IMG/VR virus record: IMGVR_UViG_3300025413_001239
Length of the DNA stretch: 64,000 nucleotides
Source: a virus
Taxonomy: Duplodnaviria > Caudoviricetes
Direction: 5' to 3' (one strand)
Position numbers and translations under genes: made by a program. Positions 6,956 to 63,102 of this stretch are shown in pieces. Position 1 is the first letter of the stretch. Each line of letters starts with the position of its first letter. The notes under the pieces are model-generated. The model was not told the origin of the DNA and ran no database searches. It saw only the letters and a list, made by a program, of their open reading frames with translations.

Positions 6956-8731
6956 ATGCTTACAAAACAAGAAATATTGTTTGAATATGGGAAATGTTTA
7001 TCAAATCCAATCTATGCTATCGAAACATACTTAGAAACATTCGATAAAACTAGAGAGGGATTTGTTCAATTTAAGTTATTCCCAAGACAAAAAGAAATTA
7101 TTCAATGTTACCAAAAACATAGGTTTAATCTTGTAACTAAACCAAGACAAGCTGGGGTTTCTACAACTACAGCTGCTTATATGTCAATTAAAGTTGGTTT
7201 TGCTGATGAAGATAATCCAGAGGCTATTTTGATTGTTGCAAATAAACAAGAGTTGGCTTTTGAATTCTTAGCTAAAATTAAGGACTTTTTATCACAGTTA
7301 CCTAGATGGGTTTGGGGCTCTGAGTATTACGGTACTAATAAAGCTGAATCTAAGGATATATTCAGTATAAATTCAAAGGGTGAAATTAAATTACCTAATG
7401 GTAGTCGTGTTAAAGCGGTTGCCACATCTAAGGATGCACTTCGTGGTTTTACTCCTACTTATCTTATTATGGATGAGGCTGCATATATTGATAATGGTGC
7501 TGTAGTTTTTGGTGCTGCGTTAACCGCTTTAGGTACTGGTGGTAAAGCAACACTTATTTCAACACCTAACGGTATGGATAAATTGTACTATGAAACATAT
7601 GCACAATCTAAAGCTGGTAAAAATAACTTTAATATCGTTGAAATGAAATGGTATGAGGATTTAAGGTATAATAAGGACCTTAGATGGCTTAAAGATGATA
7701 ATGTTGAATATGAAATTGAATACACATTTGATTCATATAAATTCATGATTTCTCAAGGTTATAAACCAACATCTTCATGGTATGAGGAAATGTGTCGTGG
7801 TATGAATAACGATGCGAGAATGATTGCTCAAGAACTTGATGTATCCTTTATTGGTTCTGGGGGTAATGTAATCAGTGAGGAAGATATTCAAGCACAAGAA
7901 TTACTTAACGTTAAGGACCCAGAATTCTATGGTAATGATAAGGATATATGGATATGGAAAAAACCAGAAGAAGGACATCAGTATATAATGGGTGTCGATG
8001 TATCTAGAGGTGACGGTGAGGACTCATCAACAATGATAATTTATGATTTCACAGCTATGGAACAAGTTGTTGAATATCAAGGTAAAATACGACCAGACCT
8101 TTTAGCACAATTGGTGGAAGAATATGGTGATTTATACAAGGCTTATACTGTCGTGGATATTACTGGTGGTATGGGTGTAACAACTGTTTTAAAATTAATT
8201 GAATTTGATTACAAGCGTTTGCATTACGATACACCTAATGGTAAGATACTTTCAAATAAGAAAAAGCAAATGGAAGCTTATATGAAAGATGATAAAACAC
8301 CAGGTCTACAAGTATCCACCATACGTCTTGCAATGATTGCAAATTTTGAAGAGAAGATTAGGAACAACATCGTTAAAATTAGGTCTATAAGGCTTATTAA
8401 CGAGATGAAAACGTTTGTGTATAAGAATGGTCGTCCAGACCACATGGATGGTTACCACGATGATTTAATTATGGCTTTGGCCATGTGTCTTTGGGTTCTT
8501 GAACATTCATTTAAAAACTTAGAAAAACTTGAAAAACAAACTAAGGCTATGCTTAATAGTTGGGTTGGTAGTTCTAGTAGTGATAATGCTGATGTTAAAG
8601 GAAGCGGATTTGTTTCACAAGCATCAAGAAATAAGGCGGCAATGCCAAAACCTAAATTTAGCCCAGTAGTTGCAAAGAATATGCAAGACCCAACAGGTCA
8701 ATACATGTGGTTATTTAGTGGTACAAAATAA
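6956..8731 (+). CDS. terL: Terminase large subunit (T4 gp17-like)
   Basis: Walker A KPRQAGVST, Walker B LIMDEAA, coupling motif ISTPNG, nuclease motif GVDVSRGDGED, C-terminal HDDL. Confidence 0.95.
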   Translation: MLTKQEILFEYGKCLSNPIYAIETYLETFDKTREGFVQFKLFPRQKEIIQCYQKHRFNLVTKPRQAGVSTTTAAYMSIKVGFADEDNPEAILIVANKQELAFEFLAKIKDFLSQLPRWVWGSEYYGTNKAESKDIFSINSKGEIKLPNGSRVKAVATSKDALRGFTPTYLIMDEAAYIDNGAVVFGAALTALGTGGKATLISTPNGMDKLYYETYAQSKAGKNNFNIVEMKWYEDLRYNKDLRWLKDDNVEYEIEYTFDSYKFMISQGYKPTSSWYEEMCRGMNNDARMIAQELDVSFIGSGGNVISEEDIQAQELLNVKDPEFYGNDKDIWIWKKPEEGHQYIMGVDVSRGDGEDSSTMIIYDFTAMEQVVEYQGKIRPDLLAQLVEEYGDLYKAYTVVDITGGMGVTTVLKLIEFDYKRLHYDTPNGKILSNKKKQMEAYMKDDKTPGLQVSTIRLAMIANFEEKIRNNIVKIRSIRLINEMKTFVYKNGRPDHMDGYHDDLIMALAMCLWVLEHSFKNLEKLEKQTKAMLNSWVGSSSSDNADVKGSGFVSQASRNKAAMPKPKFSPVVAKNMQDPTGQYMWLFSGTK

Positions 8732-9024: not shown

Positions 9025-12000
9025 ATGGCTAAACAAAATTTAACAATATTCCAAAAATTGGGTCAAATACTAGGTCCAGAAGGAGTAAAACAAAAACAAC
9101 AATTACCAGCTCAAAATCAACCGCAAAGATACAACATTGGTAAGGATGTCTTATTAAAGACTGATGACAAAAAAGCTTATGAATTAGCTAAACTACAAGC
9201 ACAACAAAATAAGTACTTGGGTCAAGTTTGGAAAAAAGTTGAACACGGACTTTTTCAACAAGCTGTTAACTATGAAACCACACGTATTGGTTCTTATTCT
9301 GATTTTGAATCGATGGAATTTTATCCAGAAATAGCTGCTGCTTTAGACATTATGATGGAAGAATCGACTACACTTAATGGTAATGGTCGTATGGTTAATG
9401 TTTATTCTGATAGTGTTAGGGTTAAGGGTATTATTGAAGACCTTTTATTTAATAGGCTTGATATGCATACATCATTACCAATGTGGACCAGAAATACTCC
9501 AATACGTGAAGATAGTATTATACCATTATTAGATGGTACTGAAATTACTATCAAGGAACTATCTAATAGAGTTAAAAATGGTGAAGAAATATGGTCTTAT
9601 GCAATTCAAGATGTTACCAAGGCAATTGTACCAAGTAAAATAATTTGGTGTGACCTTACTAGAAAGGATAGTGAATTATATCGAGTAACACTTGATGATG
9701 GTTCATATATTGATACAACACCAGACCATGAATATATGCTTAGAGATGGTTCATATAAAAGAGCTGATGAATTAACTGAAGGACAGTCTTTAATGCCTTT
9801 TTATACTAGAAAAAGTGAAAAGAAAAAAGATTGTATTGTAGGTTATGAAAAAATTTATAATCCAAGTACAACTAAATATAAGTTTACTCATTCTTTAGTT
9901 GCACATGAGTTATCAAATTGGAAAAATAGTAAATTTATAGAACAAACCAAAAAAGGTATGACTATAGAAATTACCGATGATTGTTTTGATTATATTTCAA
10001 CTATAATAAAAAATAATGAAAATTATGTTGGTGTAAATAAATTAACTAAATTACTTAGAGCTGATTCTAATTTTATTACGTTGTTTAAAGAAAATTATTC
10101 TTTAAAAAAAGATATTATTAAATCTATTAACCCAACAACATTAACTAAAGTATTATTTAGAAAAACAAATCAGAATTATTTTGATTTTGTTTTATCAATA
10201 AAACCAAGTTTAGTATTAGATAAATCATATATCAAAGCTAAAGCAATTTATTTAGGTAAAACTAAATCAAACGTATTATTAAATCATAAAGTTGTTTCAA
10301 TTATTAAACTTTCAGAGACTTCTGATGTATATTGTTTAGAAGCGGTTGGACCTAATGGCGAACATGATAGACATAATTTTCCAGTGTTAGGTAAAGATGT
10401 AAATGGTTCAGTATCAAGAAGTTCTGGTGTATTTTTAGCCAACTGTAAATACGGTGATAATTTCGTTTATTTAAATATTTCAGATACTAATGGTGTTATA
10501 GGTGCAAAGCAAATGCCTAACTATGAAATGGAACGTAGAGATGGTGGTCTTTTTGATATGATTTCACAAAGAACTGATGAAGATTATAAAACAGATAAAA
10601 CTAAGTATTATTGGAGAGGTCGTGATGTTGAATTTAACTCATGGCAAATAGCACACTTTAGACTTCTTGGTGATGATAGAAGATTACCTTACGGTACATC
10701 GGTGCTAGAAAAAGCTAGAAGAATTTGGAAACAATTATTATTATCTGAAGATGCTATGCTTGTTTATCGTGTTACACGTGCACCTGAGCGTAGAATATAT
10801 AAAATATATGTTGGTAATATTGATGATAAGGACGTTGAAGCATACGTAAATGAAATTGCTAACAGGTTTAAAAGAACCCCAATGGTTGACCCACAAACTG
10901 GGCAAGTTGATTTAAGATATAATCAACTTTCAAATGACCAAGATTACTTTATTCCAGTTAGAAGTGAAGATGCTCCAAGTCCTATCGATACATTACCTGG
11001 TGCTTGTTTATCTTTGGATACGAGGATTCCACTATTAGATGGTAGAATACTTGAACTACAAGAAATTATTTCTGAATGGGATAATGGTAATAAGGACATG
11101 TGGGTTTATTCTGTTGACCCTCAAACTGGTGCATCAACAGTTGGTCCAATCACTTGGGCTGGAGTTACACGTAAAAATACTCAAGTTTTGAAGATAACCC
11201 TTGATAACGGTAAATCAATAACTACAACACCAGACCATAAGTTTGTACATAGAACCAATGGGTTTGTGGAGGCACAAAATCTTGTTATTGGTGATAGTCT
11301 GATGCCGTTTTATACTGATATCGCTAAAATAAAATCAAATTCTAATAATGGTTATCAGAGAATTTGGGATACGGCTACTCAAAAATGGGTTTTTACACAT
11401 AGATTAGTCAAAGAAATTTTATCCAATACTGGGTTAATAAAAGATTTTGAATTTGATACAAAATATATTGGTACTGATAAAAAAATAATACATCATAAGG
11501 ACCATAATAGATTTAATAACGCACCAAACAATTTGGTAATGATGAATGTTGGTGACCATATGAAATATCATCAATCAGTTATTAAAGAAACTATTTGGGC
11601 TAACCCAGAACTTAATAAGGCTAAAATTACACTTGGCGTTAATAAATTCATTTCAAATTTGACTGATGAGGAAAGAGCAATAAGGGCTAAAAAATCAAGA
11701 AATAATTCCGTTACCACAAGAGATAAGGCTAATAAAACGTTTAATGGCAATATTAATAAAGTAGAAATTATTTCAAAAAGAGGTAAGGCTATTGCTGAAG
11801 CAAAGTCAATCCCAGAGTTTAAAGAAAAATTATCTAAGATAGCAGCTAATAATTGGCTAGTTGATGGTTATAAAGAAAGAGTATTCTCAAAAAAACAAAC
11901 ACTTACTTTTTCCGAAAATCTTTATATGATGTTTTTTGAGATGTTTAAACAGCATGGTAAAGCTGATGCTACACTTGCTGAATTAAATCAATCGATTGAG

Positions 12001-13362
12001 TTCATGAACGAATTCACTTCTAGTAATCGAGACATTAGAAGTTCAATTACTAATTTTAATGAATTTACACATAATCATCTTGAAAAGATGTTAAAGAGGA
12101 GAGGATTTAAAAATTATCGTGATTGGTGCAAGGTAACCGCTAAACAACTGGGATACAAGAATGTTAGAGCTTGGAGGTACAGTATAGAAAAAGGCTCTAA
12201 AGTACTTCTATATAATCATAAGATTGTATCAATTGAATGGTTAACTGATTTACAAGATACAGGAACAATCACTGTTGATGGTGAGGAAAAATATCAATCA
12301 ACTCACACATTTGCTTGTGAATCAGGCATTTATGTAAAAAATTCTAATCTAGACCAAATTGCTGATATTGAATACTTACAAAAGAAATTATTTACAGCCT
12401 TAAGGGTACCGAAACCATTCTTAGGTTTTGAAGAAACAACTGGTGATGGTAAGAATTTAGCGTTACAGGATATTCGTTTTTCTAGAACAATCAATAGGAT
12501 TCAACAGGCCATGCTTCAAGAGCTTAATAAGATTGTTATTATACACTTATATTTACTAGGATTTGAAGATGATTTAGATAACTTTACTTTAACACTTAAT
12601 AATCCATCTACACAAGCTGAAATGCTTAAGGTTGAGCATTTACAATTGAAGATGACATTGTTCAAGGATGCTGTATCTGACGCTGGTAATGGCTTTGCTC
12701 CAATGTCAATGACTAGAGCTAAACGAGAAATTCTTGGTTGGGCCGATAATGATATTAAACAAGACCTTCTTGAACAACGTATGGAAAAAGCTGCCGCAGC
12801 TGAATTGGCTAACTCAGCAAATGTTATTAAGCATACTGGTATGTTTGACGTTGTTGATAGACTTTATGGTGATATGAAATTAGCACTTAAGGGTGGTGGA
12901 ACTCCACCAGAAGGTGCTGAAGGTGGTGCTGCTGGTGGTGCTGCTGGTGGTGCCGCTGGCGGTGGAGCTGGTGGCGGCGGTGGATTCGGTGGTGGTGGAA
13001 TTAGCCCAGAAGACTTAGATTTTGGAGCTGAAGGTGGTGAAACGCCAGAAGCTGGTGAGGCTGCTGGTGGTGAGGCTGCTGGTGGTGAAACACCAGCAGC
13101 TGGTGGTGAGGTCGCACCAGAAACGACTGCTGAAGCAATTATTAAAATTGAAAATTTATTAACTGAAAGTAAATCAAAAATTACTAAAAAGTTAAATGAT
13201 AGAACTGAAAAGTATAAAAATAGATTTTTTAATAATTTAATTGATATGGTTGACCATGAGCAAAAACCATTAGATAATGTGAAAATAATTGATAAAAACG
13301 TAAAAATTAATGAAACTGTTAATTCTATGATTAAAGACATTGATGATATGTTAAAAGATTAG
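9025..13362 (+). CDS. Portal protein (T4 gp20-like) containing two inteins; about 684 aa after splicing
   Basis: Portal motifs PYGTSVLEKARRIWKQL, EDAMLVYRVTRAPERRIYKIYVGN, DIEYLQKKLFTALRVPK; position between terL and the protease. Confidence 0.92.
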   Translation: MAKQNLTIFQKLGQILGPEGVKQKQQLPAQNQPQRYNIGKDVLLKTDDKKAYELAKLQAQQNKYLGQVWKKVEHGLFQQAVNYETTRIGSYSDFESMEFYPEIAAALDIMMEESTTLNGNGRMVNVYSDSVRVKGIIEDLLFNRLDMHTSLPMWTRNTPIREDSIIPLLDGTEITIKELSNRVKNGEEIWSYAIQDVTKAIVPSKIIWCDLTRKDSELYRVTLDDGSYIDTTPDHEYMLRDGSYKRADELTEGQSLMPFYTRKSEKKKDCIVGYEKIYNPSTTKYKFTHSLVAHELSNWKNSKFIEQTKKGMTIEITDDCFDYISTIIKNNENYVGVNKLTKLLRADSNFITLFKENYSLKKDIIKSINPTTLTKVLFRKTNQNYFDFVLSIKPSLVLDKSYIKAKAIYLGKTKSNVLLNHKVVSIIKLSETSDVYCLEAVGPNGEHDRHNFPVLGKDVNGSVSRSSGVFLANCKYGDNFVYLNISDTNGVIGAKQMPNYEMERRDGGLFDMISQRTDEDYKTDKTKYYWRGRDVEFNSWQIAHFRLLGDDRRLPYGTSVLEKARRIWKQLLLSEDAMLVYRVTRAPERRIYKIYVGNIDDKDVEAYVNEIANRFKRTPMVDPQTGQVDLRYNQLSNDQDYFIPVRSEDAPSPIDTLPGACLSLDTRIPLLDGRILELQEIISEWDNGNKDMWVYSVDPQTGASTVGPITWAGVTRKNTQVLKITLDNGKSITTTPDHKFVHRTNGFVEAQNLVIGDSLMPFYTDIAKIKSNSNNGYQRIWDTATQKWVFTHRLVKEILSNTGLIKDFEFDTKYIGTDKKIIHHKDHNRFNNAPNNLVMMNVGDHMKYHQSVIKETIWANPELNKAKITLGVNKFISNLTDEERAIRAKKSRNNSVTTRDKANKTFNGNINKVEIISKRGKAIAEAKSIPEFKEKLSKIAANNWLVDGYKERVFSKKQTLTFSENLYMMFFEMFKQHGKADATLAELNQSIEFMNEFTSSNRDIRSSITNFNEFTHNHLEKMLKRRGFKNYRDWCKVTAKQLGYKNVRAWRYSIEKGSKVLLYNHKIVSIEWLTDLQDTGTITVDGEEKYQSTHTFACESGIYVKNSNLDQIADIEYLQKKLFTALRVPKPFLGFEETTGDGKNLALQDIRFSRTINRIQQAMLQELNKIVIIHLYLLGFEDDLDNFTLTLNNPSTQAEMLKVEHLQLKMTLFKDAVSDAGNGFAPMSMTRAKREILGWADNDIKQDLLEQRMEKAAAAELANSANVIKHTGMFDVVDRLYGDMKLALKGGGTPPEGAEGGAAGGAAGGAAGGGAGGGGGFGGGGISPEDLDFGAEGGETPEAGEAAGGEAAGGETPAAGGEVAPETTAEAIIKIENLLTESKSKITKKLNDRTEKYKNRFFNNLIDMVDHEQKPLDNVKIIDKNVKINETVNSMIKDIDDMLKD
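9499..10443 (+). mobile_element. Intein 1 in portal (315 aa): Pro at position 1, class-3-like, endonuclease core missing
   Basis: Block A PIREDSIIPLLDG, block B TTPDH, block F VYCLE...HNF, C-terminus LAN followed by C. Removal restores WTRNT-CKYGD. Confidence 0.85.
11005..12342 (+). mobile_element. Intein 2 in portal (446 aa) with HNH endonuclease
   Basis: Block A CLSLDTRIPLLDG, block B TTPDH, HNH motif IHHKDHNRFNNAPNNL...H, C-terminus VKN followed by S. Removal restores TLPGA-SNLDQI. Confidence 0.92.
12892..13110 (+). repeat. Gly/Ala/Glu low-complexity coding repeat in the portal C-terminal tail
   Basis: Tandem GGTGGTGCTGCT and GCTGCTGGTGGTGAG units encoding GGAA and GGE(A/T)A repeats. Confidence 0.8.
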
Positions 13363-13408: not shown

Positions 13409-14179
13409 ATGCAGAATTTTGGTAATATAAAGAATATTTTCAATGATTTGTTAGCTGAGGGCATTTCTAAAAAAGATGTTAAAAGTAAAAAATTATTTAA
13501 AAAATACATTAAGACTATTAAGGAGAGTGAAATTCTAAAGACTCAATTTTTAGTTTATAATAACATTGAAAATAAAGTAGATAATGACGTAATTTCAGCT
13601 AATCTTTTTGTTTCTGAAAATATTAGATTAATGGAAAAATACCCTAAATCAGAAATATTAAAAGAAAACGAAAAATTAGTTAAGTTATTAGGTGAAAATA
13701 TTAACACTAGTGATTATGATTTATCTAAATTACATGAATCATTAACTCAATTAATTTTTACTGAAAGAAAGGCAAAGAATATAGAAAAGATTACATCTGA
13801 GATTAAGAATGTTTCAAATTTTATTGTTTCAAATAAACGTAAAGAAATTAAGGAAAGCATTGATTTACCAATAAGTTTTTTAACCAAATTTATTGTTCAA
13901 AGATACAACGAAAAATACAATACTCTGGACGAATCAGATAAGAAAATGTTAAAAATTATTCTTAATTCAAATTTAGATGAAAAAAAGAAAATCTATGCTG
14001 AAACTGTAAGTGAGTGTATAAGTTTAGTTAATAATTTAATTACTGAATCTGATGAAGAATCAAAGGATAAATTACTTAAGGTTAAGGTTAAACTTGAAGA
14101 AGTTGTTGATATAGACGATAGTAATTTTATTAATAAATTTTCTAAGATAGTTGAACTAAAAAATAATTTAGAAAAGTAA
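13409..14179 (+). CDS. Hypothetical helical protein, candidate prohead core component
   Basis: 256 aa with upstream ATATTTAT; lies between portal and protease. Confidence 0.75.
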   Translation: MQNFGNIKNIFNDLLAEGISKKDVKSKKLFKKYIKTIKESEILKTQFLVYNNIENKVDNDVISANLFVSENIRLMEKYPKSEILKENEKLVKLLGENINTSDYDLSKLHESLTQLIFTERKAKNIEKITSEIKNVSNFIVSNKRKEIKESIDLPISFLTKFIVQRYNEKYNTLDESDKKMLKIILNSNLDEKKKIYAETVSECISLVNNLITESDEESKDKLLKVKVKLEEVVDIDDSNFINKFSKIVELKNNLEK

Positions 14180-14192
14180 ATTAAAAACAATT

Positions 14193-14426
14193 ATGGCTTC
14201 TGAAAACATTTATAAATTGAGGGTATTGGTTGAGGAGCTTTCTAGACAAGATGATGAGAGTTTAAAAAGCGAAGAATACAAAGATATACTTAACAATATT
14301 AAATATGTATTTGATATTGAGACCAGTAAAATTAATAATGAGAATGATAAAGAAGATAGGTTAAGATGTTATGAAAAAATGTGTTCCACAATTCAAATAA
14401 TATTAAATAAAATTAAAATTGCTTAA
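14193..14426 (+). CDS. Hypothetical protein
   Basis: 77-aa ORF in operon context. Confidence 0.65.
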   Translation: MASENIYKLRVLVEELSRQDDESLKSEEYKDILNNIKYVFDIETSKINNENDKEDRLRCYEKMCSTIQIILNKIKIA

Positions 14427-14429
14427 AAA

Positions 14430-14768
14430 ATGCCAAACGAAGAAACATGGGGTGATTACAGCAAGTTAGTGTTAAGGGAACTTGAAAGACTTAATGATAA
14501 CTATGAAAAAATGAGAGAAGATATTGATTCTCGTTTTAAAGAAATGAATACTGTACTTTCAGAATTTAAAAATACTGAAAAAGTTGTAAATGACCATAAA
14601 ATTTGGATTGAAAAAGTTAATGATGTTTGGTCACCAGCTCAAATGAAAGAAGCTAAAGATGAAATATATGCACAAAAGAATAAGTGGGTGGCTACAATTG
14701 CCGTTATGACATTTTTAGAAATATTAATAGGTGTAATTTTATCACTATGGGGTAAAATTAAATTCTAA
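14430..14768 (+). CDS. Coiled-coil protein with one C-terminal transmembrane helix (holin- or XhlA-like topology)
   Basis: Hydrophobic stretch WVATIAVMTFLEILIGVILSLW after a heptad-like region. Confidence 0.55.
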   Translation: MPNEETWGDYSKLVLRELERLNDNYEKMREDIDSRFKEMNTVLSEFKNTEKVVNDHKIWIEKVNDVWSPAQMKEAKDEIYAQKNKWVATIAVMTFLEILIGVILSLWGKIKF

Positions 14769-14774
14769 AATTAC

Positions 14775-14803
14775 TTGACCTATTCAATTTTTTTCACTAT
14801 ACT
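14775..14803 (+). promoter_or_regulatory. Host-sigma (early/middle) promoter
   Basis: TTGACC-N17-TATACT, 18 nt before the ATG at 14822. Confidence 0.65.
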
Positions 14804-14821
14804 TGTATAAAAATACCAGGT

Positions 14822-15262
14822 ATGAAAAAAGGAAAAGAATTAAAGGTTAACACATTTAAAAATTATAATGTATTTTACGGTAGCGTAAATAACAAAGAAC
14901 CCAAAGCATTATATATTAATATATCTGCTTGGGCTCAACCTGAAGAGGATGATGATATAAATTACTTTAGAGTAATAAGAGATTTAGATAAGAAGATTAG
15001 ACAAACAGTTTATAACGAATTATCTCAAAATTACAATTTATTTTTAAAGGAAAGAACAATTGTTGATTTTGATATAAGAGAGTCTGGGGTTAGATATGGT
15101 AAGCGTAGTTTTACAAATTGTGAGATTACATTATTCATGAAATATGAAACCCCAATTAATTCTGAAGAAATAAAATTAATATTAGAAAATTTAATTAAAA
15201 CGATTATTGAAAATAACTTTGATAATTGTGACAAATTTAAATTTCATAAAAAGAAGAAATAA
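14822..15262 (+). CDS. Hypothetical protein
   Basis: 146-aa ORF with its own promoter and terminator. Confidence 0.75.
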   Translation: MKKGKELKVNTFKNYNVFYGSVNNKEPKALYINISAWAQPEEDDDINYFRVIRDLDKKIRQTVYNELSQNYNLFLKERTIVDFDIRESGVRYGKRSFTNCEITLFMKYETPINSEEIKLILENLIKTIIENNFDNCDKFKFHKKKK

Positions 15263-15328: not shown

Positions 15329-16018
15329 ATGGATGTAAAAATATTAAAAGCTGGTGAAAGTGGTTTTGGGGTAATGATTGAACATGACGCTGGGTTCATT
15401 TCACCAACTGATGTTAGAAATCAAAATCTTATTAGAGAATTTAAAAATATGGATATTGGTGATGCCAGTACCATTACCGTATATGTTGTTCTTCAAAAAT
15501 ATGGTGTAAAAAATAGAAATGGTAGAATTTATCCAGAACAAATCCTTAAAACACAAAACGAAATTTATCAACAAGCTATTAGAGAAAGAAGAGCTTTAGG
15601 TGAATTAGACCACCCAGAAACATCTATTATTTCTGGTGATAGAATATCACACAACATTATTGAAACATGGTGGGAAGGTCATACTCTTATGGGTAAGATG
15701 GAAATTCCTATGACTAGAGGTTTTGTAAAATTAGGTATCGTATCAACTAAAGGTGATTTAGTCGCACATTACTTAGAGCATAACTATATGATTGGTGTAT
15801 CATCAAGAGGTGTTGGTTCTTTAAAAGAAGTTAAGGGTGATTTTATCGTACAAGATGATTTCGAACTTATTTGTTGGGATATCGTTACGGCACCGAGCAC
15901 TCCAGGGTCATGGATTTTTAAAGATAAAGCAGAAGCTAGACCTTATGTTGAAAATTTCTCAATAAACAAACCAAAACTTAATGAAACTTTAGATAATTTT
16001 TTATCTGATATTATTTAA
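15329..16018 (+). CDS. Prohead core protease (T4 gp21-like)
   Basis: Motifs NRNGRIYP, ALGELDHP, RISH, IGVSSRGVGSL, WDIVTAPSTPGS. ATG at 15329 preferred over the TTG at 15281. Confidence 0.92.
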   Translation: MDVKILKAGESGFGVMIEHDAGFISPTDVRNQNLIREFKNMDIGDASTITVYVVLQKYGVKNRNGRIYPEQILKTQNEIYQQAIRERRALGELDHPETSIISGDRISHNIIETWWEGHTLMGKMEIPMTRGFVKLGIVSTKGDLVAHYLEHNYMIGVSSRGVGSLKEVKGDFIVQDDFELICWDIVTAPSTPGSWIFKDKAEARPYVENFSINKPKLNETLDNFLSDII

Positions 16019-16114: not shown

Positions 16115-17545
16115 ATGGCAGAAAAAAAATCAATTTTAGAAGAGGCTTTATTAGATGTTAAAAAAATCCAAGAAGCTTTAGATGCCAACGCCAAAGAAAT
16201 ACTTCGTTCTTTAACGAAAGAAGAAATTGATGGTATGTTGAAAGAATCACTTGAAGATGAGAGTGATTATGAAGAAGAAACTGTTAGCGATGATGATGAA
16301 TCAACTGAACCAGAAGAAGATGAAGAATCAACTGAAGGTGACGAAGATGAAATTGAAATCGGTGACGAAGATTCTGATGATGATGACGAAGAAGATATTG
16401 ACTCCTTAGAGAATGTTGGCGATGACGACCAAGAAGATGAAATGGACATAGATGATATGTCAGATGAGGATGAAATTGACATGACAGATGCATCTGATGA
16501 TGATGTTATCGCTATTTACAAGAAATTGAGTGGTGATGACGAAATTGAAATCGTAGGTGATGAAATTCACATGAACATTTCTCAACCAGGTGAATACATT
16601 GTTAAAAAAGGAGCTTTAGGTGGTGGAGCAGTAGCTGCAACAGCTGAACCAGAATTTGATGATGAATTTGGTGATGAATTAGATGAAGAAATGGATGAGT
16701 CTGAAGAAGATGAGTCTGAAGAAGATGAGTCTGAAGGTTTAACTTACGAAATCGCAATGGATGACGAAGACACTATGACTGAAGAGGAAGAAGAAGACGA
16801 ATCTATGTACGAATCTGAAGAAGATGACGAAGAAGATGAATCTATGAACGAATCTGAGGAAGATGAATCTATGAACGAATCTGAGGAAGATGATGAGGAA
16901 GAAGAAGATGAATCTATGAACGAATCTGAAGATGATGAGGAAGAAGATGAAACTATGACTGAAGAAGAGGAAGAAGAAGATGAAACAATCGAAGAAAAAA
17001 TTGGTGTTGGTATTGGGATGAGTGTGGGTAATCACCGTAATCCAACTGCGAATACAAAAGCTCCAATGAATCCGAAAGCTAAAAACGAATCTACATCAGC
17101 TAAAAAAGTTCTTTCAGAAACTGAAGTTAAGTACAAAAAGTTATTACAAGAGTCTACACAACTTAAGACTGAAAATGAAGAATTTAGAAAAGCTCTTAAG
17201 AAATTTAGAAATATGTTAGTTGAAACTGTAGTGTTCAATTCTAATTTAAGTTATGTAACTAAATTATTCATGGAACATGCAACAACTAAAGAAGAAAAAC
17301 AAACAATTATAAAAAGATTTGATGAGGAAGTAACTAACCTTAAAGAATCTAAAAAGTTATACAAAACTATTGTTAATGAATTAGGTGCAAGAAAACCTAT
17401 GACAGAATCAGTAGACAGAAAAATAAATAATTTGGTTACCACAAGCACTTCAAAACAATTAAATGAAGCAACAGCTTATGTTGACCCTTCTACTCAAAGA
17501 ATTAAGGATTTAATTTCTAGAGTGGAAAATAAGGATAAATACTAA
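16115..17545 (+). CDS. Highly acidic prohead scaffold (T4 gp22-like position)
   Basis: D/E-dominated central region and coiled-coil C-terminus; lies directly between protease and MCP. Confidence 0.75.
   Translation: MAEKKSILEEALLDVKKIQEALDANAKEILRSLTKEEIDGMLKESLEDESDYEEETVSDDDESTEPEEDEESTEGDEDEIEIGDEDSDDDDEEDIDSLENVGDDDQEDEMDIDDMSDEDEIDMTDASDDDVIAIYKKLSGDDEIEIVGDEIHMNISQPGEYIVKKGALGGGAVAATAEPEFDDEFGDELDEEMDESEEDESEEDESEGLTYEIAMDDEDTMTEEEEEDESMYESEEDDEEDESMNESEEDESMNESEEDDEEEEDESMNESEDDEEEDETMTEEEEEEDETIEEKIGVGIGMSVGNHRNPTANTKAPMNPKAKNESTSAKKVLSETEVKYKKLLQESTQLKTENEEFRKALKKFRNMLVETVVFNSNLSYVTKLFMEHATTKEEKQTIIKRFDEEVTNLKESKKLYKTIVNELGARKPMTESVDRKINNLVTTSTSKQLNEATAYVDPSTQRIKDLISRVENKDKY
16690..16990 (+). 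repeat. Acidic coding repeats in the scaffold
   Basis: GATGAGTCTGAA x3 and GAATCTATGAACGAATCTGA x3, encoding DESE and ESMNESE. Confidence 0.8.
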
Positions 17546-17562
17546 AATAAAATTAAAAAACT

Positions 17563-19503
17563 ATGTCATTATTAACATCAGGACAAGTAGGTAACATCGG
17601 CCTTAACCACATGAAGGCTGTACGTCAAGAAACACAAGCAAAATGGAATTCATTAGGTTTCTTGGAAGGTCTTAAAGGCCACGTAAAAGAAAACATCGCT
17701 CAATTGTATGAGAACCAAGCTTCTATGCTTTTAAGCGAATCAACAACTGCAACATCATCAGGTTCTTTCGAAACTGTAGTGTTCCCAATTGTACGTAGAG
17801 TATTCTCTAAATTATTAGCTAATGATGTAGTATCAGTACAAGCTATGAACATGCCAATCGGTAAATTGTTCTATTTCGTACCACAAACATCAATGCGTCA
17901 AGATGGTAGTAACCCAGGTAACTACGGTAGCGATTACGCAACTGCACTAGGTAATGATACTTATTACACCACTTACTCAGCTCACACTGGTCTTAACGGT
18001 GAACACAATGGTGTAATTACCGCTGCTGCAACTCCAGTTGCTGACGTAGCAAACGCTTACCCAATTACCAAATTTGCTAATAAGAATTTGTATGATATAT
18101 TCTACAATGACGGTTTATTTGATAACTCTAAGGGTACAATGGCTATTAGGACTCTTACAGTTTCATCAATTGGACAAATTTTCACATTTGATAACAATGG
18201 TACCCTTAACGGTGTTACTGGTGCTTCACAAACACTTCCATTAGCTACTGACGGTTCACTTAGACACGCAATTATCGGTTTAAGTGGTTTCTCTGGTGGT
18301 GCTGGTTATCAAGGTAGAGAAGTATTAACAGGTCCAGATGGTAACAACATGGATACTGAATCATTCTTAGCTTCATTGCACATTGTTAACGGTTCTAACG
18401 CAATTTTAGATGCTCAAGGTAACACAATTATCGCTGCTTATTCTGAAATACCTTTCCGTTTAGTAACTCAACAATATGGTAAATCAATTGTACAAAATAC
18501 TGCTAACATATCTGTTTCCAACCAATTTGGTGGTTCAGCTGTTAACGTTCCAAACTTGGTACAACCAGGTGGTATCTTATACATCGAATTAGATTTCAGA
18601 CACCCAGTAGGAACAACAGCTGGTGCTGGTGCTGCTATTACAACTGGTACAACTTACGATGGTTATATCGGTGCTAATATTTCAGTTGCTAGTGGTGTTA
18701 CAAATTTCTCACCAGTAGCTGCTTGGGCTGAATACGCTTCATTAGAGCTTGAAACTGAACTTGGTGAGGTTTCTTTCACACTTAACGAAGTTGTAGTTGC
18801 TGTTGAAGAAAGAAAATTAAGAGCAACATGGTCTCCAGAATTGGCTCAAGACGTTAGTGCATTCCACAACATCGATGCTGAAGCTGAATTGACTGCAATG
18901 TTGTCTGAACAAGTTGCTGCTGAAATTGACCGTGAAATCCTTAGAGATTTACGTAAAGCTGCTGCATGGCAATTACGTTGGGATTACAATGGTTGGAGAA
19001 GAGCTTCTTCATCTGCTAGTCCTTACACACAAAAAGACTGGAACCAAACTCTTATCACAAGAGTAAACCAACTTTCTGCTCAAATCCATAAATCAACTCT
19101 TCGTGGTGGTGCTAACTTCATCGTTGTATCTTCTGAAATTTCTGCAATCTTCGATGATTTAGAATATTTCCACGTAAGTGATGCTAATCCAGAGCAAGAC
19201 CAATATAACATGGGTATCGAAAGAATCGGTACATTAGGTGGACGTTATCAAGTATATCGTGACCCTTATGCTCCAGCTTACTCAGCTATTATCGGTCATA
19301 AAGGTAAATCATTGTTAGATACAGGTTATATCTACGCACCATATGTGCCATTGCAATTAACCCCTACAATGTACAATCCTTTTAACTTCGCTCCAGTTAA
19401 AGGTATCATGACAAGGTATGCGAAAAAAGTTGTGAACAATAGGTTCTATGCTCATTTACGTGTAGACGGTGTTGTAACATTCAATACACAAGAATTAAGA
19501 TAA
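17563..19503 (+). CDS. Major capsid protein (T4 gp23-like)
   Basis: Motifs VQAMNMPIGKLFY, RKLRATWSPELAQD, IDREIL, YAPYVPLQ, KGIMTRYA; strongly biased codon usage. Confidence 0.95.
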   Translation: MSLLTSGQVGNIGLNHMKAVRQETQAKWNSLGFLEGLKGHVKENIAQLYENQASMLLSESTTATSSGSFETVVFPIVRRVFSKLLANDVVSVQAMNMPIGKLFYFVPQTSMRQDGSNPGNYGSDYATALGNDTYYTTYSAHTGLNGEHNGVITAAATPVADVANAYPITKFANKNLYDIFYNDGLFDNSKGTMAIRTLTVSSIGQIFTFDNNGTLNGVTGASQTLPLATDGSLRHAIIGLSGFSGGAGYQGREVLTGPDGNNMDTESFLASLHIVNGSNAILDAQGNTIIAAYSEIPFRLVTQQYGKSIVQNTANISVSNQFGGSAVNVPNLVQPGGILYIELDFRHPVGTTAGAGAAITTGTTYDGYIGANISVASGVTNFSPVAAWAEYASLELETELGEVSFTLNEVVVAVEERKLRATWSPELAQDVSAFHNIDAEAELTAMLSEQVAAEIDREILRDLRKAAAWQLRWDYNGWRRASSSASPYTQKDWNQTLITRVNQLSAQIHKSTLRGGANFIVVSSEISAIFDDLEYFHVSDANPEQDQYNMGIERIGTLGGRYQVYRDPYAPAYSAIIGHKGKSLLDTGYIYAPYVPLQLTPTMYNPFNFAPVKGIMTRYAKKVVNNRFYAHLRVDGVVTFNTQELR

Positions 19504-19556: not shown

Positions 19557-19580
19557 GTTTTCTGTTGGATATTTATTTAT

Positions 19581-19919
19581 ATGAAAAGTCTAATAAAAAA
19601 ACTACTTAGGGAATCGTTAAGTGATTATCCATCTAAATGGATGGAAGAAAAAGACCAGAATAACCAAAAAAGAGTATTTATTGAAGACGCTTCGTCTAAA
19701 TTAAACACTTATTTTGGTGAGGTTAATGATTTATTTAAGATTAAAAAAATACAAAGTATTTTAGGTATTATCTTTAATTATAAGACAAGTCACAACGATG
19801 AATTTGAAGAGAATAATGAAGAATTAAGAGATTATAAATTACAACTTGGTAAGTACTTTAAAACAAACGATATTTATACGATAACCGTAATAATAGATAA
19901 CACATTTAATGGAGATTAA
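19581..19919 (+). CDS. Small protein with MKSLIKKLLRE leader (candidate internal head protein)
   Basis: ATG at 19581, 4 nt after ATATTTAT; shared leader motif. Confidence 0.7.
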   Translation: MKSLIKKLLRESLSDYPSKWMEEKDQNNQKRVFIEDASSKLNTYFGEVNDLFKIKKIQSILGIIFNYKTSHNDEFEENNEELRDYKLQLGKYFKTNDIYTITVIIDNTFNGD

Positions 19920-19922
19920 TAT

Positions 19923-20423
19923 ATGAAAAACATTATAAAAAAATTACTTAGAGAAACATTTGAGATTGATGAAATGGATTATCAAAGTTATAAGAAAATG
20001 GACGAATTACAATCGGCTTTAAGTCGTGGTCTTATTGTTAGTGTTGTAACAGTTAAGGATGATGGTACCGTAAGACACATGGCCGCTAAAAAATTCTTAA
20101 GTGCTTATCAAGCTAGTACAGCTGAAAAATCTGAAAAACAAAAGTTTATTAAGCCTAACAATGACATAGAAAAGTTTATCGATATAAACATATATAATGA
20201 CTTAGTTAGAAAGACTGGTGATAAAGCTGATGCAGCAAAAAAAGCGTGGAGAATTATACGTCTTGGTAATGTCCTAGCATTCATGGTTAAGGGTCGTTTA
20301 TATGATATGCGTGAAGAAAATAACATAAAGGAAAGATACGGTGAAGAAATTTATAATTCATTAACGAAATCAATGGTTAATGTTATGAATAGAGACATAA
20401 ATCAACCAATAGAAGGAATATGA
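19923..20423 (+). CDS. WYL_2 / SH3-like domain protein with MKNIIKKLLRE leader
   Basis: Pattern VKDDGTVR...FIDIN...AWRII fits the WYL_2-type K-DG-x-R / D / WR signature, judged by eye. Confidence 0.5.
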   Translation: MKNIIKKLLRETFEIDEMDYQSYKKMDELQSALSRGLIVSVVTVKDDGTVRHMAAKKFLSAYQASTAEKSEKQKFIKPNNDIEKFIDINIYNDLVRKTGDKADAAKKAWRIIRLGNVLAFMVKGRLYDMREENNIKERYGEEIYNSLTKSMVNVMNRDINQPIEGI

Positions 20424-21241
20424 AAATAGGTAAAATATTTAATCAATTATTAAAAGAAGAATATAACGGTCATAAATTACTTGGTTATCACGTTACCAGT
20501 GAGGCTAATATTGAATCAATTAGACGCAATGGTTTCTTTGTTGGTAATAGAGCTATGCAAGGTCGTGGTTTTTATTCTTTTTATGAATATGAACGAGCAA
20601 CTGGTTATGGTTGTAAATCTGGTAATTCAACTGCGATTGTTAAATTTTTAGTTACGAGACCAAAATCATTAATATACTTAAATATGGATATTGCTAAACA
20701 AGTTTTAGGTGATAAATACCATTTAATTGACCAAGTAGAAAATTATTATAAATATTATGGTGGGGTTGAATATTTTTTAGAAAATTGTTTAAGTTCTTCA
20801 TATGTTAATGAATACGGTAGAGGTATTGAAAACTTAACTAATTATCTTAATAATATAGAAAATACATACCCTAAACATTTTAGAATTACATTGATTAGTA
20901 GTAGAGAAGATGATAAGTTAAATGTTTTGTATGACGGTGAATATGGTATTGAGATGCGGTTTAATAATGTTAATTTATTAAAACCAATTGGTTTTAATAT
21001 AATTAGTTGTTTAAATGGAAATAATTTAAAAAATGTTGAATTTAGTATATTAGACGATATACCAAATACTGATGAATTTAAACCACTTAGAGATTTTATC
21101 ATCAATCTTAATTTACAAGATGCAACATTTGATATAGTTAAAAATAAACTTGATAAATTGCTTGAAACTATACGTAGCAGTAGGGAATTTAATGAACTAA
21201 ATAAAATATGGGACTTAATATATAAAATAAAAAAAAGCTGA
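20420..21241 (+). CDS. ADP-ribosyltransferase-fold protein with MKIGKIFNQLLKEE leader
   Basis: YHVTS...SIRRNGF...GRGFYS...ATGY matches the YHxT...GF...GxGxY...AxxY pattern of H-Y-type ARTs. Confidence 0.6.
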   Translation: MKIGKIFNQLLKEEYNGHKLLGYHVTSEANIESIRRNGFFVGNRAMQGRGFYSFYEYERATGYGCKSGNSTAIVKFLVTRPKSLIYLNMDIAKQVLGDKYHLIDQVENYYKYYGGVEYFLENCLSSSYVNEYGRGIENLTNYLNNIENTYPKHFRITLISSREDDKLNVLYDGEYGIEMRFNNVNLLKPIGFNIISCLNGNNLKNVEFSILDDIPNTDEFKPLRDFIINLNLQDATFDIVKNKLDKLLETIRSSREFNELNKIWDLIYKIKKS

Positions 21242-21260
21242 GTAAATCTCAGCTTTTTTT
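21231..21260. terminator. Bidirectional terminator between convergent genes
   Basis: AAAAAAGCTGAG-taaat-CTCAGCTTTTTT. Confidence 0.85.
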
Positions 21261-21284
21261 ATTTACGTTAACTCTAGTTATTTT

Positions 21285-22163
21285 TTAGGCTTTCTTGCCG
21301 CAAGATGGGCAAAATTTATTTGTCTTATTAATTTTAGCACCACAATTAGGGCAGTATCTTTTAACATTAATATCATCAGCGGTATTAACCTTTTGTGATA
21401 TTGGAAGTAATTTATATTCTACCGTATGGAATGGGTAATAATTAAATGACTTGTTAACAGTTTGTAATTTTTGGTCTGATTCACTACCAGCTTCAACACG
21501 GCCAGTTTCAACAGTTTTAGAACTTCTAACAATTTTTGAAGTTGCATCGGATGAATAGTTACCAATTGATGATGTGAATGTAGCTGAAGTACTATTTAAA
21601 TACGAATTAGATGAACTAGACCCATTAGCCATACCAGTAAGATTTACAGTGCCACTATAATTAGTATTAGATGTGGTAACTCCCATTGGCGTTGATAACG
21701 TACCGCTATTTGAAAAATAAGTTATTGGGTTACAATAATCATAATAAGTCCAAGTAGGATTATTAGAAATAGTTATTGTTGAATTTAATGGCGTAGTTTC
21801 AGTGTAAAACTCTACTTTAAAGTCACCATTTTTTTCAATAGCCTTTTGTACCTCTTGAGTATTAGATACTTCATAAACGTCAAATTTAAAGCGTTTAGCA
21901 ACATCTATGTAACGGTCAAGAAATACTCTTTCACCAGGTCTAAGCACTAGACCACCTTGTGAGATTATGTTGTTATTAAGATAGATTTTAGCCAACACAG
22001 AATTTGATGTTGGATTAAAGAGTTCAATTTGGAACGAATCACCATTATTCAAAAAAAATGTTGGGTCTGATTCTTTATTATATATTTTTAATCTAGATTT
22101 ATTTATACATATAAACGCACTTGGCATTTCAGTATTTGTGATGTATTTTTTTTCGTTTTTCAT
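21285..22163 (-). CDS. Hypothetical protein with C-terminal zinc ribbon
   Basis: CPNCGAKINKTNKFCPSCG; Ser/Thr-rich linker. Confidence 0.75.
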   Translation of the reverse strand: MKNEKKYITNTEMPSAFICINKSRLKIYNKESDPTFFLNNGDSFQIELFNPTSNSVLAKIYLNNNIISQGGLVLRPGERVFLDRYIDVAKRFKFDVYEVSNTQEVQKAIEKNGDFKVEFYTETTPLNSTITISNNPTWTYYDYCNPITYFSNSGTLSTPMGVTTSNTNYSGTVNLTGMANGSSSSNSYLNSTSATFTSSIGNYSSDATSKIVRSSKTVETGRVEAGSESDQKLQTVNKSFNYYPFHTVEYKLLPISQKVNTADDINVKRYCPNCGAKINKTNKFCPSCGKKA

Positions 22164-22265
22164 TTTTTTAACTTTTAATGTTTTATTATGTACTAATATT
22201 TTTGTTGCCTAGACAACTCTAAAGTCATTTCTGACTCAATACTAATACTTGAGTTAACGTAAATA

Positions 22266-22296
22266 TAAATATATAACTATTTTAAAAATAGTCAAG
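22266..22296 (-). promoter_or_regulatory. Host-sigma promoter for 21285..22163
   Basis: Minus strand reads cTTGACT-N16-TATATTta. Confidence 0.5.
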
Positions 22297-22424
22297 TACT
22301 TTATTGAAATTCTGGACCTTGTTCACAAAGGGTTGATTGTATTGTGGCCCAATAAGTATCAGCTTCATCAGCCATACAATCACCAGTGATGCCATAGGGT
22401 TTTGAAATATGATTACCAAGCATA

Positions 22425-22658
22425 TTAGTATGCTTTATTAATTTCAAAATTAGCTTGTTTAAGCATAGTTAATGGTTTTTGTATTTTAGCACATAATTCT
22501 GGTGCTTCATCCCTAGAACCGATTGCTGCTGTAATTCTACTGATAACCTCATCATAACTATTAACTGAAATTGTATCACATAGTGATTGTAATTGTGGGT
22601 TCATATTCTCACCATCAATTAATTGTTCTCTGAGTAATTTTTTTATAAAACTTTTCAT
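22425..22658 (-). CDS. Small protein with MKSFIKKLLRE leader, possibly frameshifted into 22301..22423
   Basis: Leader motif. A coding-like frame continues past the stop (KHTNMLGNH...EQGPEFQ, stop at 22301). Confidence 0.6.
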   Translation of the reverse strand: MKSFIKKLLREQLIDGENMNPQLQSLCDTISVNSYDEVISRITAAIGSRDEAPELCAKIQKPLTMLKQANFEINKAY

Positions 22659-24058: not shown

Positions 24059-24085
24059 TTTCTTTTAATAATAAATATCCAGATA

Positions 24086-31975: not shown

Positions 31976-32869
31976 TTAAATATTTTCGATTTTTATTTTA
32001 CCGTTTAATTTTTTTTCGGTAATTATTGTGTATTTTGGATTAATCTTTATTTCATCGGTAATATTGCTAGAATTTTCGTGGATTAAAATAAAAGGTTGTT
32101 CAAAATTAGGGTTATAATATGTTTTAATGTCATCACCAAAATTATCACATTTAACTAATATTACATTTTCTTTAATTGAGTTATCGACTTCAACTAAATA
32201 CTTTTCACCAATCATTTTAGTTTTAAAGTTATAAAATTCTAAATCGTTAATTAATTTTAAAAATAAATTAGAGTTTAATATTACTTTATTAGCTTCATGA
32301 AAACATGTTTTATGTATTTGGGCTGAAATTTGGTTGATTTTTGTAATTAGAGTTTGATTCCAATCATATTGTGTATACTCTGTAACTTTATCAGTTACAT
32401 TATGTCCTAAATAATCCCAACTTGTATTCCACGCTGGCATATATAATTCTTTGATTTTATTATTTTCGGATTCAACATAAAGTTCACAAAATAATTTGAT
32501 TAGATTAGCCTCAACATCAACATCTTTATGGAAACTGTGTACATTATATGTGTGTGAATTTATACAATCATCAATTGCATATATAAATTGAAGCATTTTT
32601 TCTTCAGTGAATTCAAATCGTTCATTTATAATTAATTCACTATCAATCTTATAAAGTGTGGATATTGCTGAAAAGGTTACAGTATCAGTTAATCTATTAT
32701 TAATTCTAACATATTTATTTCTAAATAAATAAACTGCTAATTGCATAGCATTGGCTACTTTTTCTTTAAACGGTTCTTTAACATAATCAAGAAATCCAAT
32801 TTTATCCCATCTTGTTAAAACGTCTAGTGATTCATCTATTATGTAATCACTGTTTACTAATATACTCAT
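31976..32869 (-). CDS. Truncated, divergent paralog of the major capsid protein
   Basis: YTQYDWNQTLITKINQISAQIHK versus MCP YTQKDWNQTLITRVNQLSAQIHK (19/23 identical), plus collinear N-terminal similarity. Confidence 0.75.
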   Translation of the reverse strand: MSILVNSDYIIDESLDVLTRWDKIGFLDYVKEPFKEKVANAMQLAVYLFRNKYVRINNRLTDTVTFSAISTLYKIDSELIINERFEFTEEKMLQFIYAIDDCINSHTYNVHSFHKDVDVEANLIKLFCELYVESENNKIKELYMPAWNTSWDYLGHNVTDKVTEYTQYDWNQTLITKINQISAQIHKTCFHEANKVILNSNLFLKLINDLEFYNFKTKMIGEKYLVEVDNSIKENVILVKCDNFGDDIKTYYNPNFEQPFILIHENSSNITDEIKINPKYTIITEKKLNGKIKIENI

Positions 32870-42823: not shown

Positions 42824-43611
42824 CTATCTTGAGTTGTTTCAGTTTTATGTTGAGTTCTTTTAACAAAAAACGTTGTTATACTATTATCGTAAGGATTTAC
42901 AGAATGACAATCATATTTAGGTGTTAAATTTAAAAATGAATTCCATCCAGGCCACAAACTTCTTTTATCACCGTCAATATCATTATTTTTATAATTATTT
43001 AACTCCCATAAAATTCTAGCTAAATATCTTTCACCAGCACAACTTTCTATTCTAACAGTAATTATAATATCTTTGATATATTCATATAGTTGTACACATT
43101 TTTCAGTGGCAATGATAAAACTTGAACACCAACAGAATGTTATTTTATCTAAATTATTTAATAACCCAATACTAGTTAAAATATTATTTGAAATGTCTTG
43201 AAAATCACCATCTTGATGATATGAGTTTATAGGGCATGCGGTGATTTCTTGTTCGTGTAAGGTATTAAAATCAATTCTATTTTTTATAATAAAATTATCT
43301 TGTGATAAAACAATATAATTATAGTTATTAACTAAATTATTATCCATTAGATATTTTATACCTATCTGATAAGCACCTATTTCAAATTTAGACGGCCCAT
43401 TATTGTCAAGTAAAATAACGTTAGTGTATTTTTTTAAATTATTAAAAATTTCATCCTTATATACTGAATTATTATCAACTACTAGTACTAATGAATCTTG
43501 GTAGAAACGTTGTATGTTTTGTATATAATATTCCACATAAGATTCGTAACCTCTAAAGTATTTATGAGCAATTATAAATATTACCTTATTTTTATCATTT
43601 ATCCTATCCAT
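42820..43611 (-). CDS. Putative GT-A-like glycan-synthesis protein
   Basis: LVVDNNS, FEIGAY, LSQDN; island context. Confidence 0.5.
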   Translation of the reverse strand: MDRINDKNKVIFIIAHKYFRGYESYVEYYIQNIQRFYQDSLVLVVDNNSVYKDEIFNNLKKYTNVILLDNNGPSKFEIGAYQIGIKYLMDNNLVNNYNYIVLSQDNFIIKNRIDFNTLHEQEITACPINSYHQDGDFQDISNNILTSIGLLNNLDKITFCWCSSFIIATEKCVQLYEYIKDIIITVRIESCAGERYLARILWELNNYKNNDIDGDKRSLWPGWNSFLNLTPKYDCHSVNPYDNSITTFFVKRTQHKTETTQDR

Positions 43612-63006: not shown

Positions 63007-63102
63007 TTATAAATATACAGAAAATAAAAATAAGTCTAAAAAGCTAACCCCAGTTCTGTCTGATGCTACTACTAAAACTTTAATTTTTTTGTTTTTTGTC
63101 AT
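63007..63102 (-). pseudogene. Orphaned original 5' end of the glycosyltransferase (31 aa)
   Basis: MTKNKKIKVLVVASDRTGVS-FLDLF...; homology ends exactly at the Ser AGC codon (63045-63043). Confidence 0.75.

Follow-up and report, generated by a model that had tools for sequence, protein, structure and literature searches.

The 64,000-nucleotide stretch of viral DNA analysed here (IMG/VR record IMGVR_UViG_3300025413_001239; Duplodnaviria, Caudoviricetes; hereafter the window) encodes four proteins that begin with the same short basic leader, MKxxIKKLLRE, or a diverged form of it. This leader is probably a targeting propeptide resembling the capsid targeting sequence (CTS) of phage T4 internal proteins, cut after Glu11; we infer cleavage at this residue, packaging of the cargo into the virion, and injection. 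A sequence-only reading of this DNA had previously taken the peptide for a packaging leader on effector proteins, and this proposal is supported, all computational tests that were able to refute it having come out in its favor. The leader itself, its N-terminal position, the selection acting on it as a peptide, its modular use, its association with head genes of T4 type and the agreement of its ending with the known specificity of the protease family are established by the observations described below. The four genes are as follows:

19581..19919, plus strand: leader gene 1, 112 aa, leader MKSLIKKLLRE at 19581-19613, cargo of ~12 kDa with pI 4.9
19923..20423, plus strand: leader gene 2, 166 aa, leader MKNIIKKLLRE at 19923-19955
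20420..21241, plus strand: leader gene 3, 273 aa, diverged leader MKIGKIFNQLLKE at 20420-20458
22425..22658, minus strand: leader gene 4, 77 aa, leader MKSFIKKLLRE at 22658-22626

All four open reading frames (ORFs) with the N-termini first described are present in the ORF list. Leader genes 1-3 form a single tight operon 3′ of the major capsid protein (MCP) gene. The sequence-only reading had placed all four genes directly 3′ of the MCP gene, which is correct for these three; the fourth instead lies in a convergent minus-strand tail operon, ~3.1 kb from the MCP stop, where it is the closing gene and its start overlaps the stop of a 466-aa gene (24058-22658, minus strand). The third leader, which had been counted as a further copy, is indeed related to the others but has diverged, and the canonical form is seen in one ortholog. 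The string KKLLRE occurs three times in the six-frame translation of the 64 kb, each time at the start of an ORF (19581, 19923 and, on the minus strand, 22658). Past the leader the sequences diverge, as had been claimed: BLASTP among the leader-stripped window cargos gave zero matches to one another, even at E<=10. Two of the cargos are orphans, including that of leader gene 1 (19581), with no homologs in ~200 related loci, which marks the region after the MCP gene as a hypervariable cargo island. Pfam and PHROG searches with the four window cargos gave nothing firm, and three of the four have no function recognisable by these searches; the 166-aa cargo of leader gene 2 has a weak WYL_2/Sm-like match in Pfam and a match to phrog_2267 in PHROG, and the WYL_2 leads are sub-threshold in Atlas.

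The codons of the three exact leaders (gene 1, ATG AAA AGT CTA ATA AAA AAA CTA CTT AGG GAA; gene 2, ATG AAA AAC ATT ATA AAA AAA TTA CTT AGA GAA; gene 4, ATG AAA AGT TTT ATA AAA AAA TTA CTC AGA GAA) confirm the synonymous differences noted earlier (CTA/TTA, CTT/CTC, AGG/AGA), and the DNA upstream of these three leaders is dissimilar. Across 126 distinct loci, Leu8 is encoded by TTA in 83 cases, CTA in 19 and TTG in 10, Leu9 by CTT in 57, TTA in 43 and CTA in 15, and Arg10 by AGA in 84, AGG in 30, CGA in 6 and CGT in 4, and the codons for Ile5 likewise vary synonymously. This free synonymous variation at Leu8, Leu9, Arg10 and Ile5 indicates selection on the peptide, and the earlier claim that conservation is at the protein level is thereby borne out.

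In IMG/VR, at least 118 stretches match a degenerate DNA pattern designed on MKxxIKKLLRE. Among the matches listed, these contain 145 distinct leader ORFs (median 197 aa, maximum 726 aa) in at least 56 BLASTP clusters, or, after a gene-level filter, 128 leader ORFs in 59 cargo clusters, and Glu11 is followed by G, N, S, E, A or Q in ~93% of the 145 proteins. When 126 leader proteins were aligned, MKxLIKKLLRExL was the only common stretch and its Glu was invariant; the pattern consists of a hydrophobic residue at position 4 (L, F, I or V in ~110 of the 126 loci), I5, L8, L9, any residue at position 10, and E11. The leader ends in L-R-E or L-K-E and is mostly followed by a small residue, which fits an (L/I)-x-E protease logo. 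A genome-wide scan for the motif, as suggested by the sequence-only reading, was run on G006, a complete 362-kb relative: the core motif is mainly N-terminal, with six N-terminal versus two internal occurrences in 108,846 residues, and a seventh leader copy is found on a 37-codon ORF. In addition, among 79 loci found via the MCP alone, in which the amounts of DNA on both sides of the MCP gene are similar, the 3.3 kb downstream of the MCP gene contain 18 leader ORFs and the upstream side contains 1. A text search of ~8.4 million papers did not find the string KKLLRE.

The same pattern was searched in 596 Gb of prokaryote genomes and returned 10 stretches, 4 of which encode the exact peptide; three of these are chance ORFs of 13-32 codons, and the fourth encodes a 679-aa homolog of a phage protein. 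The latter (L227) starts with MKDLIKKLLRE, is located on a 170-kb contig (PLXT01000115.1) of a ‘Methanobacterium’ metagenome-assembled genome, and is homologous to the leader protein encoded at 42974 in the jumbo phage G006, and its contig is probably a mis-binned phage contig. The scan of these 596 Gb, with its chance-level matches plus L227, thus provided no host lead.

Pfam domains recognised among the 126 leader proteins include ART-PolyVal (8), GNAT (6), the poly(A) polymerase head domain (3), NUDIX (3), AAA_33 kinase-like domains (2) and ArdA (1), along with a weak protein-kinase match and others. In the checked examples, namely L051 (ArdA, E = 2.5e-30), L103 (ART-PolyVal), L087 (NUDIX) and L094 (AAA_33), the domain begins 4-19 residues past the leader Glu. 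ADP-ribosyltransferase (ART), ArdA, GNAT and NUDIX-type domains have been assigned to virion-delivered effectors (Iyer et al., 2017; PMC5512222).

The 273-aa protein of leader gene 3 has an ART fold, as does T4 Alt, and may itself be an ART. Of its orthologs, one (P0007) starts with MKGIIKKLLRE and two others contain LIKQLLRE. An AlphaFold2 (AF2) model of the protein has a mean pLDDT of 75.5, with residues 1-17 below 50 (disordered) and a low-confidence helix over residues 3-14. The best 50 PDB entries found by Foldseek with this model are all of ART fold, at weak E-values (>=0.04), and VIA-align gave Z scores of 9.5-7 against ART-fold entries over residues ~15-210. His24, Tyr52, Tyr55 and Glu178 are invariant among the seven members of the family and are candidates for the His, Tyr and catalytic Glu of the H-Y-E (PARP/diphtheria-toxin/Tpt1-like) clade, and Pfam PARP matches three of seven relatives (best E 4e-4). 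The window's own protein has no Pfam match at E<=0.1, and a profile of the family searched against PDB sequences found nothing. The ART assignment rests on the fold comparison together with the weak PARP match in Pfam, and with this qualification we call the protein an ART-fold, putatively PARP-like enzyme and a functional counterpart of T4 Alt.

Leader gene 4 resembles the 5′ part of a 112-aa family, of which its 77 aa cover just the first two thirds, and the 3′ part sits in the +1 frame:

22301..22447, minus strand: +1-frame ORF encoding the conserved C-terminal block ..DEADTYW..IQST.CE.GP.FQ of the 112-aa family

The identical split into 77 and 40 aa is called in three other assemblies (L199, L200 and L202). 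The arrangement at 22301-22658 may reflect pseudogene formation by frameshift, division into two genes, or recoding.

The leader genes of the window are linked to a set of head genes on the plus strand, listed here with their best matches:

6956-8731, plus strand: TerL
9025-13362, plus strand: T4-like portal with intein and HNH insertions, 1445-aa ORF (Portal_T4, 6e-62)
13409-15262, plus strand: four small ORFs
13409..14179, plus strand: conserved 256-aa protein of the head module, encoded between portal and protease at the place of gp67/gp68 in T4
15329..16018, plus strand: prohead protease of the gp21/S77 family (Pfam Peptidase_S77, 1.3e-22; phrog_207)
16115..17545, plus strand: scaffold/core protein, 476 aa, 171 of them Asp or Glu (36%), pI 4.05
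17563..19503, plus strand: MCP of the gp23 family (Pfam Gp23, 8.4e-71)

The order of TerL, portal, four small ORFs, S77 protease, scaffold and gp23-family MCP is that of T4 genes 17, 20, 67, 68, 21, 22 and 23, and the head module is therefore T4-type. The protease matches T4 gp21 (BLASTP, 7e-20), with GELDHP pairing with GELNHP and GVSSRGVGSL with GVSSRGLGSL in the His and Ser catalytic blocks, respectively, and has a conserved G-x-G-x-[LM]-[IV]-E18 close to its own N-terminus; this S77 protease is presumably the enzyme that removes the leader. T4 gp21 cleaves C-terminal to Glu (PMC5694885, PMC9026906), stripping 65 residues from gp23 and 10 from gp24 (PMC9958956). In the T4 record, with ↓ here and below standing for the bond after Glu, IPII and IPIII read MKTYQEFIAE↓A, gp24 reads MAKINELLRE↓S, gp23 ...FLTE65↓A and gp21 ...LLIE9. 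The leader and the gp24 propeptide both end in ...LLRE↓S, so that the P4-P1 string of the leader is exactly that of a proven gp21 site.

Sites of the same type are found in the head proteins of the window. The MCP carries a putative maturation site, L57-S58-E59↓S60 (17731-17739), between conserved ENQ and VRR motifs and in the region where T4 gp23 has its own; the sequence-only reading had singled out this L-S-E59 as a match, and the corresponding pattern, L-[LI]-x-E↓S/A/G/T, is invariant in 95 distinct homologs. The scaffold contains 21 [LIVM]-x-E sites, among them a repeated M-N-E↓S, and this hyper-acidic protein is presumably the docking partner of the basic leader. The 256-aa protein (13409) has the N-terminus MQNFGNIKNIFNDLLAE↓G, which is similar to the variant leader of the 273-aa protein, and Phi-Phi-x-E↓G/S (Phi, hydrophobic) is retained in 22 of the 22 listed orthologs (of 50).

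Several further features were observed in these proteins. The scaffold has tandem ESMNESEEDDEE-like repeats with one M-N-E↓S site each, as if made for chopping into small acidic peptides. A conserved 112-aa head-module protein (14430-14768, plus strand) carries YSKLVL[KR]E↓LERLN at residues 10-22 in ~19 of the 20 orthologs found; its K-L-V-L-R-E is similar to the leader end but is internal. The portal ORF (9025-13362) is interrupted by intein splicing domains, in two matched stretches, and an HNH endonuclease motif. A 297-aa ORF (31976-32869, minus strand) starts with MSILVNSDYIIDES..WDKIGFLD, resembling the N-terminal region of the MCP, and has no Pfam match; it may be a truncated MCP paralog or a vertex protein.

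The window has a GC content of ~29%. A window protein recurs on contigs of up to 343 kb and relatives of the MCP are found on complete IMG/VR genomes of 320-363 kb, and the window is thus derived from an uncultured low-GC jumbo phage. Such contigs occur in lakes (JGI samples 3300025401 and 3300025789). By MCP, the closest relative in culture is Flavobacterium phage immuto (39% identity); its annotated neighbourhood is arranged differently and includes no annotated counterpart of the leader operon.

Taken together, these features suggest the following mechanism. The leader would form a short basic amphipathic helix, with hydrophobic residues at positions 4, 5, 8 and 9 and basic residues at positions 2, 6, 7 and 10, and, with its net charge of +3, would dock newly made cargo on the prohead core, probably on the hyper-acidic scaffold, before closure of the gp23-like shell. 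Cleavage after Glu11 (L-R-E↓G/N/S) by the gp21-type S77 protease would follow, freeing the mature cargo within the head, while the same protease would trim the MCP at L-S-E59 and chop the scaffold. The freed cargos would be packed with the DNA and enter the host alongside it. In the window, the delivered set would comprise the PARP-like ADP-ribosyltransferase and three small proteins, and in relatives it would include ArdA, GNATs, NUDIX proteins, nucleotidyltransferases and kinases. Scaffold binding, cleavage, presence in the virion and injection are the steps that we infer.

In a sister MCP clade, in which the MCP site is L-I-N-E↓A, two other recurrent N-terminal leaders are found on unrelated proteins encoded downstream of the MCP gene (L042, L045, L047, L053, L055, L065, L066, L069 and others). 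Leader A, ...[ST]EE[ED]KNRILNLHE[SGN]ATK.QYL, occurs in 10 cargo clusters and has mostly L-H-E, with L-H-K in some copies; its conservation runs past the Glu, and it possibly represents a small domain instead of a propeptide. Leader B, MKK[VI][VI][KR]L[TN]ES.L..[LI]VK[KR]V[LI].E, occurs in five cargo clusters and ends in Phi-x-E. Leader V-[LI]-N-E and MCP L-I-N-E are found in one clade, a hint of covariation. The sister-clade leaders suggest interchangeable labels.

With respect to expression, a promoter-like octamer, ATATTTAT, precedes two of the transcription units in question:

19569..19576, plus strand: ATATTTAT promoter-like box, separated by 4 nt from the start codon of leader gene 1 and preceded by a T-rich terminator-like stretch after the MCP gene
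24071..24078, minus strand: ATATTTAT box ahead of the 466-aa gene (24058-22658), in an operon that has leader gene 4 as its last member

The box also precedes TerL, the protease, the scaffold and several other genes. The octamer is located 4-58 nt upstream of many gene starts, often behind a T-rich terminator-like stretch (plus-strand sites at 866, 1158, 6944, 13385, 15305, 16057, 19569 and 32952; minus-strand sites at 63016, 58210, 51336, 35020, 28220 and 24078), and is probably this phage group's own promoter element; with a spacing of just 4-6 nt to the ATG, transcripts may be nearly without a 5′ leader. In the viral loci as a whole, 46% of the leader genes and 21% of the remaining genes have a copy of ATATTTAT in the 40 nt before their start (Fisher p = 2e-9). 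The window has 36 occurrences in total, which is about the number expected from base composition (an estimate), and only placement near gene starts is informative. The T4 late-promoter consensus, TATAAATA, showed no association with gene starts in the window. Sharing of the box supports co-regulation of the leader genes with the head genes and does not by itself establish timing; the sole pointer to ‘late’ expression of the leader genes is this promoter-like element common to the head genes.

Several observations weigh against the interpretation of the leader as a targeting propeptide. The residue two past the Glu is conserved (Leu or Ile), and the helix may therefore run through the cut site and the peptide might not be removed. 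The leader is basic, whereas the CTS of the T4 internal proteins is neutral to acidic, and the docking chemistry may differ. In G006, the leader genes are dispersed at 15, 43, 211, 240, 246 and 299 kb, beyond the head module; with regard to expression timing, ATATTTAT is also found before genes that are not obviously structural; and neither a cultured member nor a virion proteome was found. It is conceivable, although unlikely, that the leader is instead an uncleaved amphipathic helix used for some other docking, to a membrane, DNA, a common phage or host partner, or a chaperone, without capsid loading. Its cationic and amphipathic character would suit such a role, as would the low-confidence AF2 helix over residues 3-14 and the hydrophobic residue kept two past the Glu, as if the helix continued. 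However, an uncleaved helix leaves unexplained the invariant Glu followed by G, N, S or A, the near-identity of the leader end to the T4 gp24 propeptide, the 18:1 bias toward the region directly following the MCP gene, and the similar Phi-x-E endings seen in the two leader classes of the sister clade.

It is likewise improbable that the leader is a propeptide of head-assembly (core) proteins only, with cargos that act or are degraded in the prohead and are not delivered. Many of the cargos (ART, ArdA, GNAT, NUDIX, kinases and poly(A) polymerase-like proteins) would be implausible in assembly and have precedents as injected effectors, and the cargo set is hypervariable between close relatives, unlike conserved assembly genes, although the 256-aa head-module protein encoded between portal and protease (13409) does bear a related N-terminus, three of the four window cargos are without recognisable function, and the T4 core proteins gp67 and gp68 are likewise gp21 substrates (PMC5694885). 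Much less credible still is a role of the block as nucleic acid, either as a recombination joint made of a promoter plus 5′ coding sequence or as an A-rich initiation enhancer for messages poor in Shine-Dalgarno sequences. The block is indeed rich in A, with AAA as codons 2, 6 and 7, and its start is often found 4-25 nt past ATATTTAT, and conserved 5′ ends could aid the exchange of cargo in an island that is hypervariable; yet Leu and Arg, although nearly invariant as amino acids, are encoded by codons from every synonymous family, the DNA upstream of the window's copies is dissimilar, and two of the window's leader genes are operon-internal without a box of their own. Recombination may spread the leader, but it is no substitute for a function of the peptide. 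Overall, these three alternatives account for fewer of the observations than does a T4-CTS-like propeptide. A signal-peptide or lipoprotein reading was also considered and rejected, as the leader is without a hydrophobic core.

Phage proteins that travel in the capsid and are the first to reach the host are known for few model phages and normally cannot be read from sequence. If the leader is a targeting propeptide, the N-terminal motif alone would identify injected proteins of uncultured jumbo phages in metagenomes. The ~56-59 cargo families to which the motif already points (ARTs, ArdA, GNATs, NUDIX proteins, nucleotidyltransferases, kinases and many orphans) are candidates for effectors of takeover or anti-defence. 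The leader would also add to the T4 CTS a tag of different sequence with which foreign proteins could be packaged into T4-type heads, and T4 gp21 may accept it because the propeptide of T4 gp24 ends in LLRE. More tentatively, we propose that the leader might be the portable label for the whole virion-delivered set of a widespread uncultured clade of low-GC jumbo phages with T4-type heads, loaded, unlike the T4 CTS, through a basic helix and a hyper-acidic scaffold, and that sister clades might use at least two other interchangeable Phi-x-E labels. In that case, the label, read across metagenomes, would provide a catalogue of dozens of first-wave takeover or anti-defence proteins, most of them without a known family.

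The closest known counterpart is the CTS of T4, which Mullaney and Black reportedly described for the internal proteins in 1996. The CTS and the leader are both short N-terminal peptides on unrelated proteins, with an MK start, hydrophobic residues at i, i+3 and i+4, and a Phi-x-E ending followed by a small residue; both occur with a gp21-family protease, a scaffold core and a gp23-type shell in equal gene order; and in both cases the cargo includes an ADP-ribosyltransferase (T4 Alt) and differs between related phages. T4 internal proteins join the core via an N-terminal CTS of 10-19 residues that is later removed by gp21 (PMC9026906), and in the CTS of IPIII, residues 4 and 7 serve targeting and residues 8 and 10 processing (PMC9026906). 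The CTS is carried by IPI, IPII, IPIII and Alt (reviewed in PMC9026906, PMC3012670), and across T-even phages it is the conserved CTS alone that unites diverse internal proteins (PMC3012670, PMC9026906). Those features of the T4 CTS that can be assessed in silico, namely a short common peptide, an ending that fits the protease logo and a gp21/scaffold/gp23 module, were all found here. By contrast, the T4 peptide MKTYQEFIAE has a net charge of -1 and MKxxIKKLLRE one of +3, and the latter is one residue longer; the system described here also has at least 56 cargo families, many of them enzymes, genes clustered after the MCP gene, and a hyper-acidic scaffold, and is known from sequence alone. Apart from the MK start, the spacing of hydrophobic residues and the terminal E, the two peptides have nothing in common, and they are too short for homology to be established.

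The propeptide of T4 gp24, MAKINELLRE, is more similar in sequence, with 6 of its 10 residues (M, I, L, L, R and E) aligning with the leader across a one-residue gap. It differs in being part of a shell protein and has no known use as a portable targeting tag, whereas here the same ending is found on soluble cargo. The phiKZ-like phages (SPN3US gp53/gp54, MANFVKSKLARESVE; PMC5694885) are also giant phages with a gp21-related protease, and have paralogous or unrelated head-internal proteins with a common basic N-terminal peptide that is cut after Glu; however, they have an S80 protease with an A/S/G-x-E logo and belong to another capsid lineage, in contrast to the S77 protease and L-x-E sites of the window. 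A further parallel is provided by the polyvalent effectors (Iyer et al., 2017; PMC5512222), which have the same repertoire of ART-PolyVal, NUDIX, GNAT and anti-restriction domains and are likewise predicted to be delivered with the DNA. In polyvalent proteins, many domains are fused into a single giant chain that often has an anchor of the MuF or portal-associated type, whereas the candidate effectors described here are separate small proteins with their own leaders. Overall, the proposed system corresponds directly to the T4 CTS, and the principle is not new; what is new is the sequence of the leader, its basic character paired with an acidic scaffold, the uncultured jumbo-phage lineage in which it occurs, and the breadth of its cargo.

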